Shown here: positions 15,571-25,915 of the stretch, piece by piece
Position numbering within the stretch: position 1 is the stretch's first letter
How the letters are laid out: the number at the start of each line of letters is the position of its first letter
IMG/VR virus record: IMGVR_UViG_3300046318_000439
Location: 64,001-128,000 of that record
Reading direction: 5' to 3' (one strand)
DNA from: a virus
Lineage: Duplodnaviria > Caudoviricetes
Length of the DNA stretch: 64,000 bases
The notes under the pieces: generated by a model
Databases searched by the model: none
What the model was told of the DNA's origin: nothing
Seen by the model: only the letters and a program-made list of their open reading frames with translations
Program-made: the position numbers and the translations under genes

Positions 15571-16203
15571 TTAACATACAAGAGCTTTATGTGTTAATTC
15601 TGCTTTAGGGAAACCAAAGTATTTGGCTTTCCAATCGTTCTGTGCAAATCCGACTAAAGAAGACCATTCGTCCTTCTTTTCTATTAATCGCTTCGCTGCG
15701 TTCTCCCAATCTGTGGCAAGAACAAACTTCTCGATGTTTTCCTTATAGGCAGTACACTCCTCTGATGTGTGAAAATCTTGCTCGATGTGGATCACTTCAA
15801 ATATTTCCTCTCCATCGAAGTAATCTAGGGCAAGATCCAATCCCCATTTTTGTTTACATTGTAACAAATAGCTTAGCTTGGGAATCTGCGGTTTGAATGA
15901 AAGAAGTTGCTGTAAAGCATCTTCCGTGAAATTGCATCGGTGGAGAACAGTGCAATGGTCTAATATGAACCCTTTAGGTTGATTAGACAAATGCATCCAA
16001 GCTTCTTGGAATGCATTATGATTTAGTATTTCATTATAGACTGGATAACCATTCACCCAATAGTACTCTCGTTCGAGTTGGGTTAATTCGAATCCGTCTT
16101 TATCAAAGTAATTAGTGGCCTGTGTTAACAGCTTATGCTGCATCACCGGCGCTTTGCATGTTGGGTTTTTATACACCAACGCATGTTTATTTACAGTGAA
16201 CAT
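15571..16203 (-). CDS. Hypothetical protein
   Basis: Long ORF; ATG at 16203 follows a CATAAATA late-promoter-like element. Confidence 0.7.
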   Translation of the reverse strand: MFTVNKHALVYKNPTCKAPVMQHKLLTQATNYFDKDGFELTQLEREYYWVNGYPVYNEILNHNAFQEAWMHLSNQPKGFILDHCTVLHRCNFTEDALQQLLSFKPQIPKLSYLLQCKQKWGLDLALDYFDGEEIFEVIHIEQDFHTSEECTAYKENIEKFVLATDWENAAKRLIEKKDEWSSLVGFAQNDWKAKYFGFPKAELTHKALVC

Positions 16204-16278
16204 AGATTTATTTATGCTTTTTCTATGTCCAAACAACTACTTTTTGTAGTTCCTTATTATAAACAAGGAGTTACTGTT

Positions 16279-16347
16279 GGTGGGTAATTCTGTTACGAGG
16301 AAACCCACCGAAACCCTAAGCAGTGTTTAGGCTGCTAATGCGAACTT
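16279..16347 (-). ncRNA. Displaced original 3' segment of the tmRNA coding piece (remnant)
   Basis: Reads AAG TTC GCA TTA GCA GCC TAA (KFALAA*), hairpin GCAG/CTGC, then pseudoknot AGGG/TCCT plus GGTGGGT/ACCCACC. Confidence 0.8.
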
Positions 16348-16360
16348 AAATGTTTGAATT

Positions 16361-16368
16361 TATAAATA
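16361..16368 (+). promoter_or_regulatory. Late promoter TATAAATA of the GIY-YIG endonuclease
   Basis: Exact consensus, 33 nt upstream of ATG 16401 (AGGGA RBS). Confidence 0.8.
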
Positions 16369-16400
16369 GCATTATCATATACTTTTATAGGGAAAACAAC

Positions 16401-16952
16401 ATGACAGTTCATTTTGTATATATGTGGTTTGATCGTGTGCGCAAAATGTTTTACGTCGGTCAACATACTGGATCTCTGAATGATCAATACACTTCTTCTT
16501 CACGTTGGCTAGCTGGAGAGATACGTTATCGTCCAGCCGACTTTAAACGTCGCATCATTCGTACATTCAGGACTAAGCATGAAGCTCAGCTATATGAAGG
16601 CAGACTACTAACGCTCATCCGATCCAACGAGTTTGGCTCGAGGTATTATAACCTGAAGATGGGTGCACCTAAAGGCAACTTGCCTTGGAATGCTGGTAAA
16701 ACTAATGTATATTCGAAAGATACGTTAGATAAAATGTCGACCGCCAAAAAAGGACGGCCTTCTCACAATAAAGGTAAACTGAGCCCACTATCAGCCCAAA
16801 ACGGTAAAAAGGGAGCTTCAAAGCTCGCCAAAACTGTAACAGGGAGAAGAATGGCTACTAGGCTAGATGGTACACGGTACTGGATATATCCAGATGTAGA
16901 TTGTTTGGGTGATAAGGAACAATCTACAAATCCTCATTCGATCACTGCTTAA
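16401..16952 (+). mobile_element. Free-standing Seg-like GIY-YIG homing endonuclease gene inserted antisense in tmRNA
   Basis: FVYMW...KMFYVGQHTG...QYTSSS catalytic module, FKRRII, YYNLK, NUMOD-like PWNAGKT/MSTAKKGRPSHNKGK tail. Confidence 0.82.
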
Positions 16953-17091
16953 GCAGCGAGAGCGAAGCGGCTATCATTAGCTGCAATTACATTTATTTGC
17001 TTCTTCGGCCGAGTGTCCTCAACCCTATCGTCTTTCACATTGACGTGTTGCCGTCTCTACTATCTCACGCTGTCGAAACTGTTTCAGGCCC
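16893..17091 (-). ncRNA. ssrA: tmRNA coding piece (permuted two-piece tmRNA), tag AANDSRFALAA
   Basis: 5' GGGCCTG pairs with 3' CAGGTCC-ACCA including G3.U70; TTCGAC D-loop motif; CAGCGTG pairs with CATGTTG of acceptor piece; tag codons 16984-16949. Confidence 0.92.
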
Positions 17092-17152
17092 AATAGAAAG
17101 TATACTACAGCTTTCAGTTACGATACCCCGTAGCACCCCTTAATATACTTTC
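17092..17152 (-). ncRNA. tmRNA intervening segment
   Basis: 61 nt between CCA end and mature 5' end, closed by 9-bp inverted repeat GAAAGTATA/TATACTTTC. Confidence 0.8.
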
Positions 17153-17210
17153 TGGTGGACCTGCCCGGTACTGCCCCGGGGTCCAACATGCCTTCGCTTT
17201 GAAGGGATTA
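17153..17210 (-). ncRNA. ssrA: tmRNA acceptor piece
   Basis: ...CATGTTGGAC CCCGG GGCAGTA CCGGG CAGGTCC ACCA; T-arm with non-canonical GGCAGUA loop; 5' boundary approximate. Confidence 0.88.
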
Positions 17211-17321
17211 CAACAATTCTTTTTTACGAGTTACCAAATGGTATATTACCCAAAAATATATATTAACTGTAGTAGCAATGCCCCATATAAAGGTCCAGTG
17301 CCAGTAGTCTATTAGTATCAT
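17208..17321 (-). CDS. Small hydrophobic protein (37 aa)
   Basis: MILIDYWHWTFIWGIATTVNIYFWVIYHLVTRKKELL*; below ORF-track cutoff. Confidence 0.4.
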   Translation of the reverse strand: MILIDYWHWTFIWGIATTVNIYFWVIYHLVTRKKELL

Positions 17322-17333
17322 AATTATTATATA

Positions 17334-17561
17334 TTAAAATGGAGCGTCAGGCAAGCTATTTAACCACTTCTGCTTCTCAAACTTTGGTTTCTTTAGCTTG
17401 GCTATCTCCGTCAGTGTCAAAGAAGGATCGCCGTTCATAAAGTGTTCTGCATCCTCACGAGAGAAGAACCGCCGAAGCGGTCCGTCCTCATCACTTACTA
17501 CGAATCTACGAACTGGTCTGAATGGCTCAGGCAGCTTCAGCAAATGTAACGGCAGTTTCAA
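17334..17561 (-). CDS. Hypothetical protein
   Basis: ORF track; start uncertain. Confidence 0.5.
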   Translation of the reverse strand: MKLPLHLLKLPEPFRPVRRFVVSDEDGPLRRFFSREDAEHFMNGDPSLTLTEIAKLKKPKFEKQKWLNSLPDAPF

Positions 17562-25107: not shown

Positions 25108-25198
25108 CTTTACCCCTTTTGTATTAATATATGACCAGTATCCGTTTTTTTAACAAAAAGGTCAACAGGCCTACAAACACCAGCAAGATCCGGAGGGG

Positions 25199-25271
25199 TT
25201 GACTTAATTACGTTTTTCTGGGAAAATGGTTTTAATGATTCGAACAGCATACTCTGGGGATGGACGTGGAG
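25199..25271 (+). repeat. Left (remnant) copy of promoter plus 35-nt transcript start
   Basis: TTGACT at 25199; 25237-25271 matches 25831-25865 at 29/35 nt, both 38 nt from their -35 box. Confidence 0.8.
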
Positions 25272-25282
25272 ATATGGTTTAT

Positions 25283-25290
25283 TATAAATA
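25283..25290 (+). promoter_or_regulatory. Late promoter TATAAATA of the HNH gene
   Basis: Exact consensus followed by AGGAGG and ATG 25308. Confidence 0.85.
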
Positions 25291-25307
25291 CCACAGGAGG
25301 ATGCAAA

Positions 25308-25796
25308 ATGAATGATAATGAACTGTATGAATTGTTCCATAGTAAGTACCGATATGAAGATGGTCAATTGATATCCAAACTAACTGGACAAGCAATCAAA
25401 AACAAAGCAACACGATATTTAAAATGTGAGCTTAAAATTAATGGTAAGACACACAACTTCAGAGTGCATAGAGTTATATTTCTGATGCATCATGGATATC
25501 TACCAACAATCGTCGATCACATCGACCGCGACATATACAATAACCGGATAGAGAATTTAAGAGCAGCTAGTCACAGTCAGAATAGCCAGAATCGCGGTGC
25601 GCAGTCAAACAACAAACTAGGTGTGAAGGGCGTATGTTTGAACACATCAAATAATGCCAAAAGCAAACCATACGCGGCCTTCATAAAAGCCAACGGCAAA
25701 AGATATCGAATCGGCTCTTTTGAAACCATCGAAGAGGCCTCTCGCGCTTATAACGACCATGCATCGTTGCATTTTGGTGAATTCAAGTCCAGTTGA
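25308..25796 (+). mobile_element. HNH homing endonuclease with AP2 DNA-binding domain
   Basis: VHRVIFLMHHG..P..VDHIDRDIYNNRIENLR, NNKLGVKGV, YAAFIKANGKRYRIGSFETIEEASRAY; opposite orientation to neighbours. Confidence 0.9.
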
Positions 25797-25821
25797 CCTT
25801 TTTGTCCTTTTCCCGGATAAT
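25793..25821 (+). promoter_or_regulatory. Early promoter TTGACC-N17-GATAAT overlapping the HNH stop
   Basis: HNH TGA (25794-25796) is inside the -35 box. Confidence 0.8.
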
Positions 25822-25827
25822 GATTAC

Positions 25828-25915
25828 ATAGATTTGAAGAGCTAACTCTCGGAATGGACGTGGAGGGTGGCCAACGATTCCTGGGTGCGCGAAAATTGGA
25901 GTCGGCTCTCCCACA
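25828..25915 (+). ncRNA. Candidate small structured RNA (alternatively 21-aa ORF 25855-25920)
   Basis: Stems AGAGCTAACTC/GAGTCGGCTCT and GGAAT/ATTCC; bracketed by convergent promoters. Confidence 0.5.

Follow-up and report, generated by a model that had tools for sequence, protein, structure and literature searches.

Homing endonucleases are thought to enter essential genes safely in one of two ways, either within a self-splicing intron or intein or by settling beside the gene. The locus described here would represent a third route, played out on a structured RNA, in which the invader brings with it a spare, differently spelled and equally folded end of the gene that it disrupts. It lies in a stretch of 64,000 nucleotides (hereafter the window), corresponding to bases 64001-128000 of the 202,272-bp IMG/VR viral record IMGVR_UViG_3300046318_000439, and involves a permuted (two-piece) transfer-messenger RNA (tmRNA) gene and a gene for a GIY-YIG endonuclease. 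A segment of 622 bp at this site is quite probably a mobile, free-standing GIY-YIG homing cassette that targets the tag and 3' region of the tmRNA gene and that carries a replacement end, without recourse to splicing.

The closest described systems are of several kinds. In fungal mitochondria, the elements known as mORFs (in atp6 of Allomyces, and in atp6, atp9, cox2 and nad3 of Glomus) combine a foreign C-terminus and an endonuclease gene that have been inserted into a host gene, leaving the native C-terminus downstream, and only the inserted end is transcribed with the core of the gene (PMC3630166). Islands and prophages that enter tmRNA (ssrA) genes by means of tyrosine integrases restore the gene and leave a displaced fragment behind (Islander, PMC4383910). 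SegB of phage T4 is a free-standing GIY-YIG enzyme, encoded in the tRNA gene cluster, that cuts an intergenic region (PMC2988022, and PMC2330249 cited there), and I-TevI represses its own late promoter via an operator that resembles its homing site (PMC2988022). As for tmRNA itself, the tmRNA database paper of 2025 distinguishes standard, intron-containing and permuted forms, with endonuclease genes only inside T-loop introns (PMC11915505), and two-piece tmRNAs have been reported in aquatic T4-like phages, among them the OM43 phage Melnitz, which carries a glutamine riboswitch in the 3' domain (PMC9004378). No description of an endonuclease cassette that replaces a tmRNA tail was found in the literature searched.

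The tmRNA gene and its replacement 3' end

The tmRNA gene in its present form lies on the minus strand at 16877..17267, where it is recognized by Rfam RF04321, by the Rfam beta_tmRNA model and by ARAGORN. RF04321, the permuted-tmRNA family, matches over its full length (17215..16949) with 112 bits, the gathering score being 47, and stops precisely with the TAA of the tag; the beta_tmRNA model, run with relaxed thresholds, matches over its full length at 17267..16877 with 83.7 bits, 0.3 under its gathering score of 84; and ARAGORN places a permuted tmRNA with the tag AANDSRFALAA* at 17245..16858. The tRNA-like domain shows the permuted order (P2, T-arm, acceptor 3' strand with CCA, intervening segment, acceptor 5' strand, P2). 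The acceptor piece runs up to the CCA at 17153 and is followed by the intervening segment, and the coding piece, which begins with GGGCCUG (17091), comprises the tag, a hairpin, a pseudoknot (pseudoknot A) and a terminal hairpin. The tag frame assigned by ARAGORN, GCA GCT AAT GAT AGC CGC TTC GCT CTC GCT GCT TAA (16949..16984, minus strand), encodes the tag (A)ANDSRFALAA*, which has the hydrophobic ..ALAA ending of a degron, and alignment with relatives suggests that the resume codon could be GCT, which would give ANDSRFALAA.

The 3' part of this gene, referred to here as end A (16895..16969, minus strand), was delimited by folding, by its match to the RNA model and by comparison with relatives. 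Its tag end CGC TTC GCT CTC GCT GCT TAA (RFALAA*) is continuous with the tmRNA body, and is followed by the hairpin CGCTGC/TTAA/GCAGTG at 16958..16943, which holds the stop codon in its TTAA loop, and by an H-type pseudoknot at 16937..16895 with the stems ATGAGGA/TCCTTAT and GTAGATTGTT/AACAATCTAC. The beta_tmRNA alignment spans the stop codon, a stem of the pseudoknot (GUAGAU../..AUCUAC, 16927..16896) and the last small hairpin, the post-tag pseudoknot being of the beta-proteobacterial type. On the plus strand, the endonuclease open reading frame (ORF) occupies 16401-16952, so that the two genes lie tail-to-tail and overlap by about 20 codons, within which the features of end A are encoded antisense; the tetranucleotide TTAA at 16949-16952 contains the stops of both strands, with the TAA of the ORF at 16950-16952 and the TAA of the tag ending at 16949. 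The tag end, the hairpin, the pseudoknot, their antisense position and the common stop had been pointed out in a preliminary description of the window made from the letters alone, and each was recovered at its place. That description had also called for folding of both tmRNA ends, with a divided outcome: the 77-nt A segment folds strongly (-25.4 kcal/mol, z = -4.98, equalled by 0 of 200 shuffles), and the second end, considered below, is weak when folded alone (z = -1.74).

For comparison, 96 related loci were fetched via the neighbouring DUF932 gene and the downstream 221-aa ORF. In most of them a permuted tmRNA gene directly follows the DUF932 gene, and their tags include ANDEKFALAA, ANDSKFALAA and ANDERFALAA. 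IMG/VR was also scanned for the core of the pseudoknot of the second end (type B), which returned at least 120 stretches (L106-L225, about 108 distinct ends) and, taken with the earlier loci, at least 128 distinct B-type ends; for the A-type pseudoknot, which returned 26 further stretches; and with the endonuclease protein, which returned 8 loci.

Sequence close to A is the only tmRNA end in L009/L239, L226, L227 and L236, all of them without an endonuclease gene. In the last three, AANDSRFALAA, the hairpin and pseudoknot A form the sole tail and the next gene follows at once, and the pseudoknot of the window resembles the tail of L009, where the tag is ANDERFALAA; A-like pseudoknots with other tags occur in L228, L230 and L241. 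Because A-type ends also occur as sole ends in phages without the endonuclease gene, A is, by these comparisons, a natural, functional-looking variant of the tmRNA tail that did not evolve in place from B.

The displaced native end

The second end, B, lies at 16279..16368 on the minus strand and was identified from its beta_tmRNA match, its relatives and their alignment. It consists of a degenerate tag start (16368..16348), the tag end AAG TTC GCA TTA GCA GCC TAA (KFALAA*, 16347..16327), the hairpin AGCAG/CUGCU (16336..16319), and a pseudoknot at 16317..16279 with the stems AGGG/TCCT and GGTGGGT/ACCCACC, the last three of which, down to 16279, had been anticipated in the preliminary description. 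The tag ends of A and B have 13 of 21 bases in common (62%); an ungapped repeat finder did not pair the two segments and detected no direct repeat.

Three observations bear on the origin of B. First, the Rfam beta_tmRNA model recognizes the remnant (16368..16280) as its positions 216-304 with an E-value of 2.4e-4, degenerate tag start included. Second, B shows 90-96% identity with the tmRNA 3' ends of many relatives over 61-70 nt (96% over 69 nt). Third, in a nine-way alignment of the window with eight relatives whose tmRNA lacks the ORF, the window is set apart by a single clean gap of 622 columns, and B-type sequence stands directly after tag codon 5 in 8/8 relatives. On these grounds, B is the displaced native 3' end of the tmRNA gene, as judged from sequence comparison, and the alignment bears out the earlier proposal that the endonuclease gene sits within the ancestral tmRNA span, with the sequence that accompanies it supplying a recoded tag end, hairpin and pseudoknot. 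The contrary possibility, that 16279-16347 might be unrelated to tmRNA in homologues, was not encountered, the segment being a genuine tmRNA 3' end there.

The scan for pseudoknot B adds to this picture. Among its approximately 108 distinct ends, most terminate an intact tmRNA directly and at least seven are remnants behind this endonuclease; type B is the sole functional end in at least about 100 loci without the endonuclease gene. In 46 distinct B-type ends, the hairpin and stem 2 of the pseudoknot are paired in 97.3% of cells, and covariation reaches 0.306, against 0.106 in shuffles (0/500 reach the observed value) and at most 0.10 with slid partners, five pairs changing on both sides. Stem 1 (AGGG/UCCU) is invariant in the 46-sequence set, partly since the search pattern fixed one strand; across types, as compared by eye, it changes in step (AGGG/UCCU in B, GAGGA/UCCUU in A and GAGUU/AACUU in a third type, C). 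The preliminary description had read A and B as covariation inside one genome, a view that has to be given up: the two are natural allelic tail types, each of which is the sole end elsewhere.

The endonuclease gene

The 622 bp contain a single ORF, the GIY-YIG gene (16401..16952, plus strand), which encodes a protein of 183 residues with the start MTVHFVYMW, as in its homologues, and matches PHROG 314, 'homing endonuclease', with an E-value of 1.1e-12. The Pfam GIY-YIG domain (PF01541) matches 8 of 10 family members (best E-value 5e-6), Pfam SegE_GIY-YIG gives an E-value of 0.007, a likeness at the level of the family only, and NUMOD3 matches 4 of 10 members with E-values of 0.011 or weaker. 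In the family alignment Y7, Y18-V19-G20, E66, E77 and N84 are invariant and R35 is nearly so; the residues of the GIY-YIG motif (GIY, YIG, Arg, Glu, Asn) are present, their fit being judged by eye. An AlphaFold model shows an N-terminal domain with a predicted local distance difference test score (pLDDT) near 88 (residues 1-75, approximately 85-93) and a C-terminal part of low confidence. A profile search of the family against the sequences of the PDB yielded nothing meaningful. By its motifs, the nuclease looks intact and of the GIY-YIG/Seg kind.

The C-terminal 60 residues or so are common only to the window protein, L098 and L105, and the last 20 or so (..DVDCLGDKEQSTNPHSITA) are the antisense reading of pseudoknot A and its hairpin. 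The C-termini of homologues vary, and this tail is common only where the A RNA sequence is common. Homologues do not conserve the tail of the ORF at the protein level, so that it looks less like a functional domain than like translation running on into the RNA gene.

Upstream of the gene, TATAAATA, the consensus of T4-type late promoters, occurs at 16361..16368 on the plus strand, 33 nt before the ATG and 13 nt from the junction with the remnant. Two of the four copies of TATAAATA in the window stand directly upstream of its two endonuclease ORFs, a position that is suggestive for a putative promoter. Enrichment was considered as further evidence of promoter function and rejected, the four copies comparing with 5.8 expected in 64 kb. 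Just past the stop of the endonuclease gene, a terminator-like hairpin (GCGGCTA TCAT TAGCTGC, followed by AATTACATTT; 16967-16984, plus strand) is the antisense of the tag codons AANDSR, and might account for the GCAGCTAATGATAGCCGC tag start common to all A-type cassettes.

Distribution of the cassette

The insertion as delimited by alignment with the eight relatives (16348..16969) comprises the replacement end, the antisense endonuclease gene and its 5' leader with the candidate promoter. Its left edge is fuzzy, and the transferred tract probably starts near 16984, because the unusual GCAGCTAATGATAGC tag start is common to all A-type cassettes. Among related genomes, the cassette is present or absent at one fixed site. 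Reading along the tmRNA strand, the inserted end stands next to the core of the gene, the endonuclease ORF follows, and the native end is displaced downstream, an order of the mORF type. Also as in mORFs, the displaced end groups with the ends of relatives, the inserted A matches only L009-like ends, and identity is mosaic from segment to segment. This mosaic identity was considered as proof of recent transfer and rejected, the tmRNA tail being the most conserved part even without a cassette.

In all eight loci found with the endonuclease protein, the gene is convergent with a permuted tmRNA gene, whose 3' end it touches or overlaps, and the same convergent arrangement recurs in nine more distinct loci found via RNA motifs, giving about 14 distinct arrangements when all loci are taken together. 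The tail beside the nuclease is never of type B: seven are A-type (ANDSRFALAA), three carry the tag end FLMAA, with a C-type pseudoknot in the two loci inspected, and one carries WALAA. In every locus with enough sequence, a B remnant lies 73-110 nt beyond the start codon of the nuclease (D-type in L249), and none of these loci has an intact B tag. The genes beyond the remnant are unrelated between loci, and the junction is constant within each subgroup. A tails are 84-95% identical in DNA across cassette-bearing loci, and the 5' parts of their tmRNA genes only 46-72%.

Two forms of the remnant can be distinguished. In the long-form subgroup (the window, L098, L102 and L103), it keeps the tag end, hairpin and pseudoknot, and the junction is identical, with ..CATTT(A/C) on one side and AGTTCGCATT on the other. 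In the short forms (endonucleases of 128-146 aa; L008, L108, L162, L179, L197 and others), the remnant is without the tag end, and pseudoknot B is preceded by a new hairpin, AGTAAAnGC/GCn'TTTACT, which is absent from native tmRNAs (L008:5700-5777, L132:277-354, L179:8198-8275, L197:6963-7040 and L162:6056-6133). This hairpin shows compensatory C-G, T-A and A-T changes between loci (GCAAATGCG/CGCATTTGC in L179), which suggests that the short-form remnant may be under selection for its structure, or for a role as DNA beside the endonuclease promoter.

Metagenome contigs provide an independent view of the locus. A contig from another sample spans 16307-17435 with zero differences, and in the same metagenomes B-allele contigs without the endonuclease gene cease to match the window at 16342-16346, the position of the remnant junction. 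In one contig, which probably stems from a related phage, 16344 is linked to 17045 across an unread stretch; an empty-site allele of this same phage was not found among metagenome DNA contigs.

A homing model and its alternatives

These observations can be accommodated in a model of homing without splicing. The enzyme, probably made late from TATAAATA, would cut B-type tmRNA genes in co-infecting phages without the cassette. The cut site is proposed to span tag codons 3-6, because this region is altered in both the functional copy and the remnant (AAT GAT AGC CGC in the functional copy against AAC GAC GAA AAG, and CATTTA in the remnant). The break would then be repaired from the cassette-bearing genome, with the tmRNA body as left homology arm and the B remnant of approximately 70 bp as right arm. 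The A copy, synonymously recoded at nearly every codon, would escape cutting, as would the remnant, whose upstream half is replaced. The mature coding piece would end after pseudoknot A, leaving the remnant outside the tmRNA, and the antisense overlap would lock the nuclease and its immunity allele into a unit that recombination could not separate.

A more tentative extension, which we hold to be possible but on balance doubtful, is that the stranded native tail is not debris and serves as a maintained working part of the selfish element. It is prompted by the hairpin-plus-pseudoknot fold, which is kept in the remnants at every locus, and by the compensatory changes in the short-form hairpin. 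A maintained tail could act as a homing arm, offering right-hand homology for entry into any B-type tmRNA, whatever lies downstream; by analogy with I-TevI, it could also act as an operator, a half homing site 13 nt from TATAAATA serving in the putative self-repression of the endonuclease. The two roles are compatible.

Several points weigh against the homing model. No phage pair differing only by the cassette was found among the loci compared, and a search for RNA sequencing runs with this sequence found none. The endonucleases are 43-74% identical in protein to that of the window, and many are shortened to 128-147 aa and without the C-terminal domain; because the proteins diverge to this extent while the A tails remain 84-95% identical in DNA, the uniformity of the tails would reflect constraint at the level of the RNA and not necessarily recent transfer, most copies being old residents. 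The remnants of group 1 keep the conserved TTCGCATTAGCAGCCTAA intact, and an enzyme that recognized this stretch and nothing more would cut its own element; the proposed site is therefore a deduction. As regards the enzyme, the window protein scores 17.4 bits, under the Pfam GIY-YIG cut-off of 22.6, and the top three PDB matches of its model are all the I-TevI catalytic domain (probability 0.87-0.92; template modelling score by target 0.50-0.59), with E-values of 0.26-0.38 that are not significant. Finally, genes other than this endonuclease also lie between a tmRNA and a pseudoknot-B copy, namely a 73-aa ORF and another GIY-YIG gene, and the region may be a general insertion hot spot.

The last point leads to the alternative that survives best, improbable as it is, according to which tail modules recombine at a hot spot, the endonuclease is a passenger and the duplicated tail a by-product. 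Since the region accepts other inserts too, this explanation keeps some weight: pseudoknot-B copies bracket the 73-aa ORF in L203, L186 and L157, the second copy again after a hairpin; in L240 the site is taken by a GIY-YIG gene unrelated to this one; L159 and L183 have HNH ORFs within or next to the intervening segment; and the second endonuclease ORF of the window is flanked by a diverged 74-nt repeat. However, homologues of the endonuclease under study keep to one position and one orientation, with the end of the ORF abutting or overlapping the tmRNA tail, the functional copy beside the nuclease is never B-type, and the remnant junction is constant per subgroup despite unrelated flanks. Nucleases are, moreover, the very genes that usually make, and would be expected to create, such insertion hot spots.

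Far less likely is an intron or otherwise processed insert, in which the 622 nt would be excised together with the A copy, the tag would read AANDS-KFALAA and pseudoknot B would be the real tail. There is precedent for group I introns with endonuclease genes in tmRNA genes, if only in the T-loop (PMC11915505), and the remnant is structurally intact and, read in frame, yields a sensible tag. On the other hand, no intron or ribozyme family, and thus no group I core (P3-P9), was matched in 16200-17300 at E-values up to 1; the endonuclease gene runs antisense; the tmRNA strand has terminator-like hairpins beyond pseudoknot A; and the A copy has its own stop, hairpin and pseudoknot, of the same kind as the sole ends of phages without the endonuclease gene. 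The remnants of the short-endonuclease loci, being without a tag end, could not supply a tag there. The 622 bp also differ from an integrase island, as they contain no tyrosine integrase and are not bounded by near-identical att repeats. An assembly chimera or a coincidental FALAA-coding string, which might be invoked as the genome is metagenome-assembled and B alone folds weakly (z = -1.74), is effectively refuted by the presence of the same architecture in more than 10 independent contigs from different samples, by the contig from another sample that covers 16307-17435 without difference, and by the 96% identity of B over 69 nt to real tmRNA ends.

Other insertions in the window and in related loci

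The second endonuclease ORF of the window (25308-25796, plus strand) lies within 25198-25865, between the copies of a 74-nt direct repeat (25198-25271 and 25792-25865) that are 72% identical and that each begin with GTTGAC; TATAAATA stands just before it, at 25283-25290. By its layout, this looks like the same duplication of the target as in the tmRNA cassette. In L117:2072-3156 (and also in L201), a GIY-YIG ORF stands between a partial tmRNA copy (model positions 3-131, 58 bits), which comes first, and a complete tmRNA (101.8 bits); the ORF, unrelated to that of the window, is on the sense strand and encodes 207 aa (MHYYIYKITN..). The arrangement seems to be a mirror image, in which an endonuclease gene replaced the 5' part of the tmRNA and the native 5' part was displaced upstream. 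In the light of the mirror case and of the second window endonuclease with its diverged repeat, phage homing endonucleases that attack non-coding RNA genes may in general proceed by carrying a spare end of their target.

The 73-aa ORF (MSKTPFEIRMNLLEMAKDL..) lies between two pseudoknot-B copies in L203:7745-8080, L186:219-563 and L157:4338-4415, the second copy being preceded by an unrelated hairpin, CTTAATG..CATTAAG, and in combination a hairpin and pseudoknot B behave as an end module that inserted genes can reuse. The HNH ORFs (MKHKHHIIPKHMGG..) are found between the CCA end and the coding piece in L159 and just upstream of the tmRNA in L183, and small ORFs occur within the intervening segment of several relatives (L003:8400-8600, L100:3200-3320 and L103:3100-3240). 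In L240:7013-7700 (also L247 and L248), the gene next to the A-type tail is a different GIY-YIG one, also antisense (MNNSKSFYVYAYL..YYIGKG..), and there is no B remnant; L226 shares the downstream gene of L240 without the endonuclease gene, which makes a presence/absence pair for a second endonuclease lineage.

A tandem of pseudoknots with no endonuclease between them is present in L234:8965-9325, where pseudoknot A is followed by a short-loop, B-like pseudoknot (GGTTGGT TTCCT TAATA ACCAACC), and the downstream gene is that of the cassette-bearing L162. This may be the scar left by loss of the endonuclease gene from an L162-type cassette, or a natural two-pseudoknot tail, the latter being conceivable because L244 has a similar tandem with a different tag.

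Transcription signals and genomic setting

Consensus scanning of the tmRNA strand, in which all hits are pattern matches only, located a sigma-70-like promoter candidate upstream of the tmRNA (17326..17354, minus strand; TTGCCT, a 17-nt spacer and TATAAT, 10/12 positions) and, within the antisense endonuclease gene, a terminator-like hairpin with T-tract (GAGCTTTGAAGCTC CCTTTTTACC, 16805..16826, minus strand) and two more such sites (16799..16779 and 16759..16739, minus strand). Terminator-like sites number five in 2.5 kb, against 1.9 expected, and the hairpins at 16826-16739 could end the primary tmRNA transcript soon after pseudoknot A.

Two peculiarities of the tmRNA gene itself may be added. 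A perfect palindrome, CTGGATATATCCAG (16880..16893, minus strand), aligns with the terminal hairpin in the beta_tmRNA model and doubles, on the other strand, as the conserved YWIYP codons of the endonuclease; L098 has GGATATATCC there. The T-arm of the window (17161-17190) reads CCGGG-GCAGUAC-CGGG, with the loop GGCAGUA, like the alpha-proteobacterial Rfam model, and in 8/8 aligned relatives it reads GGGUUCGAnUCCC (the usual GGUUCGAnUCC); the acceptor piece itself may thus be mosaic. A glutamine riboswitch as an element of the 3' domain was considered and ruled out, as no riboswitch family of Rfam matches in the window.

The IMG/VR record has direct terminal repeats and is rated complete. Among its large ORFs are matches to the baseplate wedge, tail and tube-cap families of T4 type, to DNA ligase and to ribonucleotide reductase, on account of which the source is assigned to the T4-like myophages. 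The phage is a freshwater one; the window sequence is present only in freshwater and aquatic metagenomes. A BLAST search of 50,697 deposited phage genomes gave no match to the tmRNA and endonuclease region.

Comparison with known systems

The locus provides a natural experiment on what a tmRNA tail must keep, namely the ..FALAA peptide, a stop codon in the loop of a hairpin and an H-type pseudoknot, and on what is free to change, which includes almost every third codon base and both stems of the pseudoknot. It accounts for tag ends that occur twice, and for tmRNA gene calls of excessive length, in phage genomes, and would provide a mechanism for the mosaic tmRNA genes of aquatic T4-like phages. 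For phage crosses, the locus could also provide a small nuclease whose target is predictable, together with the allele that would resist it.

The closest parallel is that of the mORFs, with which the cassette shares the order of parts (core, foreign end, endonuclease ORF, displaced native end), a native end that is nearest to the ends of relatives, an inserted end that differs mostly at synonymous sites, and the class of enzyme, mORFs encoding GIY-YIG or LAGLIDADG endonucleases. The two differ in that mORFs reside in organellar protein genes, with the ORF in sense orientation and often in frame, whereas here a phage gene for a structured RNA is invaded, a hairpin and a pseudoknot that have to keep their fold are among the parts replaced, and the endonuclease gene is antisense and overlaps the replacement end. 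Islands in ssrA likewise split a tmRNA gene, carry the sequence that regenerates it and have a displaced 3' fragment that marks their far end. In contrast, the present element has no integrase and measures 0.6 kb, its duplicates have diverged (13/21 tag-end bases in common) where att repeats are identical, and what is exchanged is not the acceptor/CCA end but the tail of the coding piece in a permuted gene.

The T-loop group I introns also represent the invasion of a tmRNA gene by a homing endonuclease gene with its function kept, as is putatively the case here; the means is splicing in the introns and a spare end here, the site is the T-loop as against the tag and 3' tail, and the enzyme is of the LAGLIDADG as against the GIY-YIG family. 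Melnitz offers the same setting, with a permuted tmRNA gene of an aquatic T4-like phage downstream of an early-type promoter, and differs in having a riboswitch, not an endonuclease cassette, in the 3' domain. With the Seg enzymes of T4, the nuclease shares a GIY-YIG gene that is free-standing, lies next to genes for small RNAs in a T4-like phage and has its own middle or late promoter (putative here), and whose spread is expected to proceed by double-strand-break repair in co-infection, with co-conversion of flanking markers. SegB differs in lying between tRNA genes, no duplicated or replaced gene end being described for it, and its similarity to the window enzyme is at the family level only.

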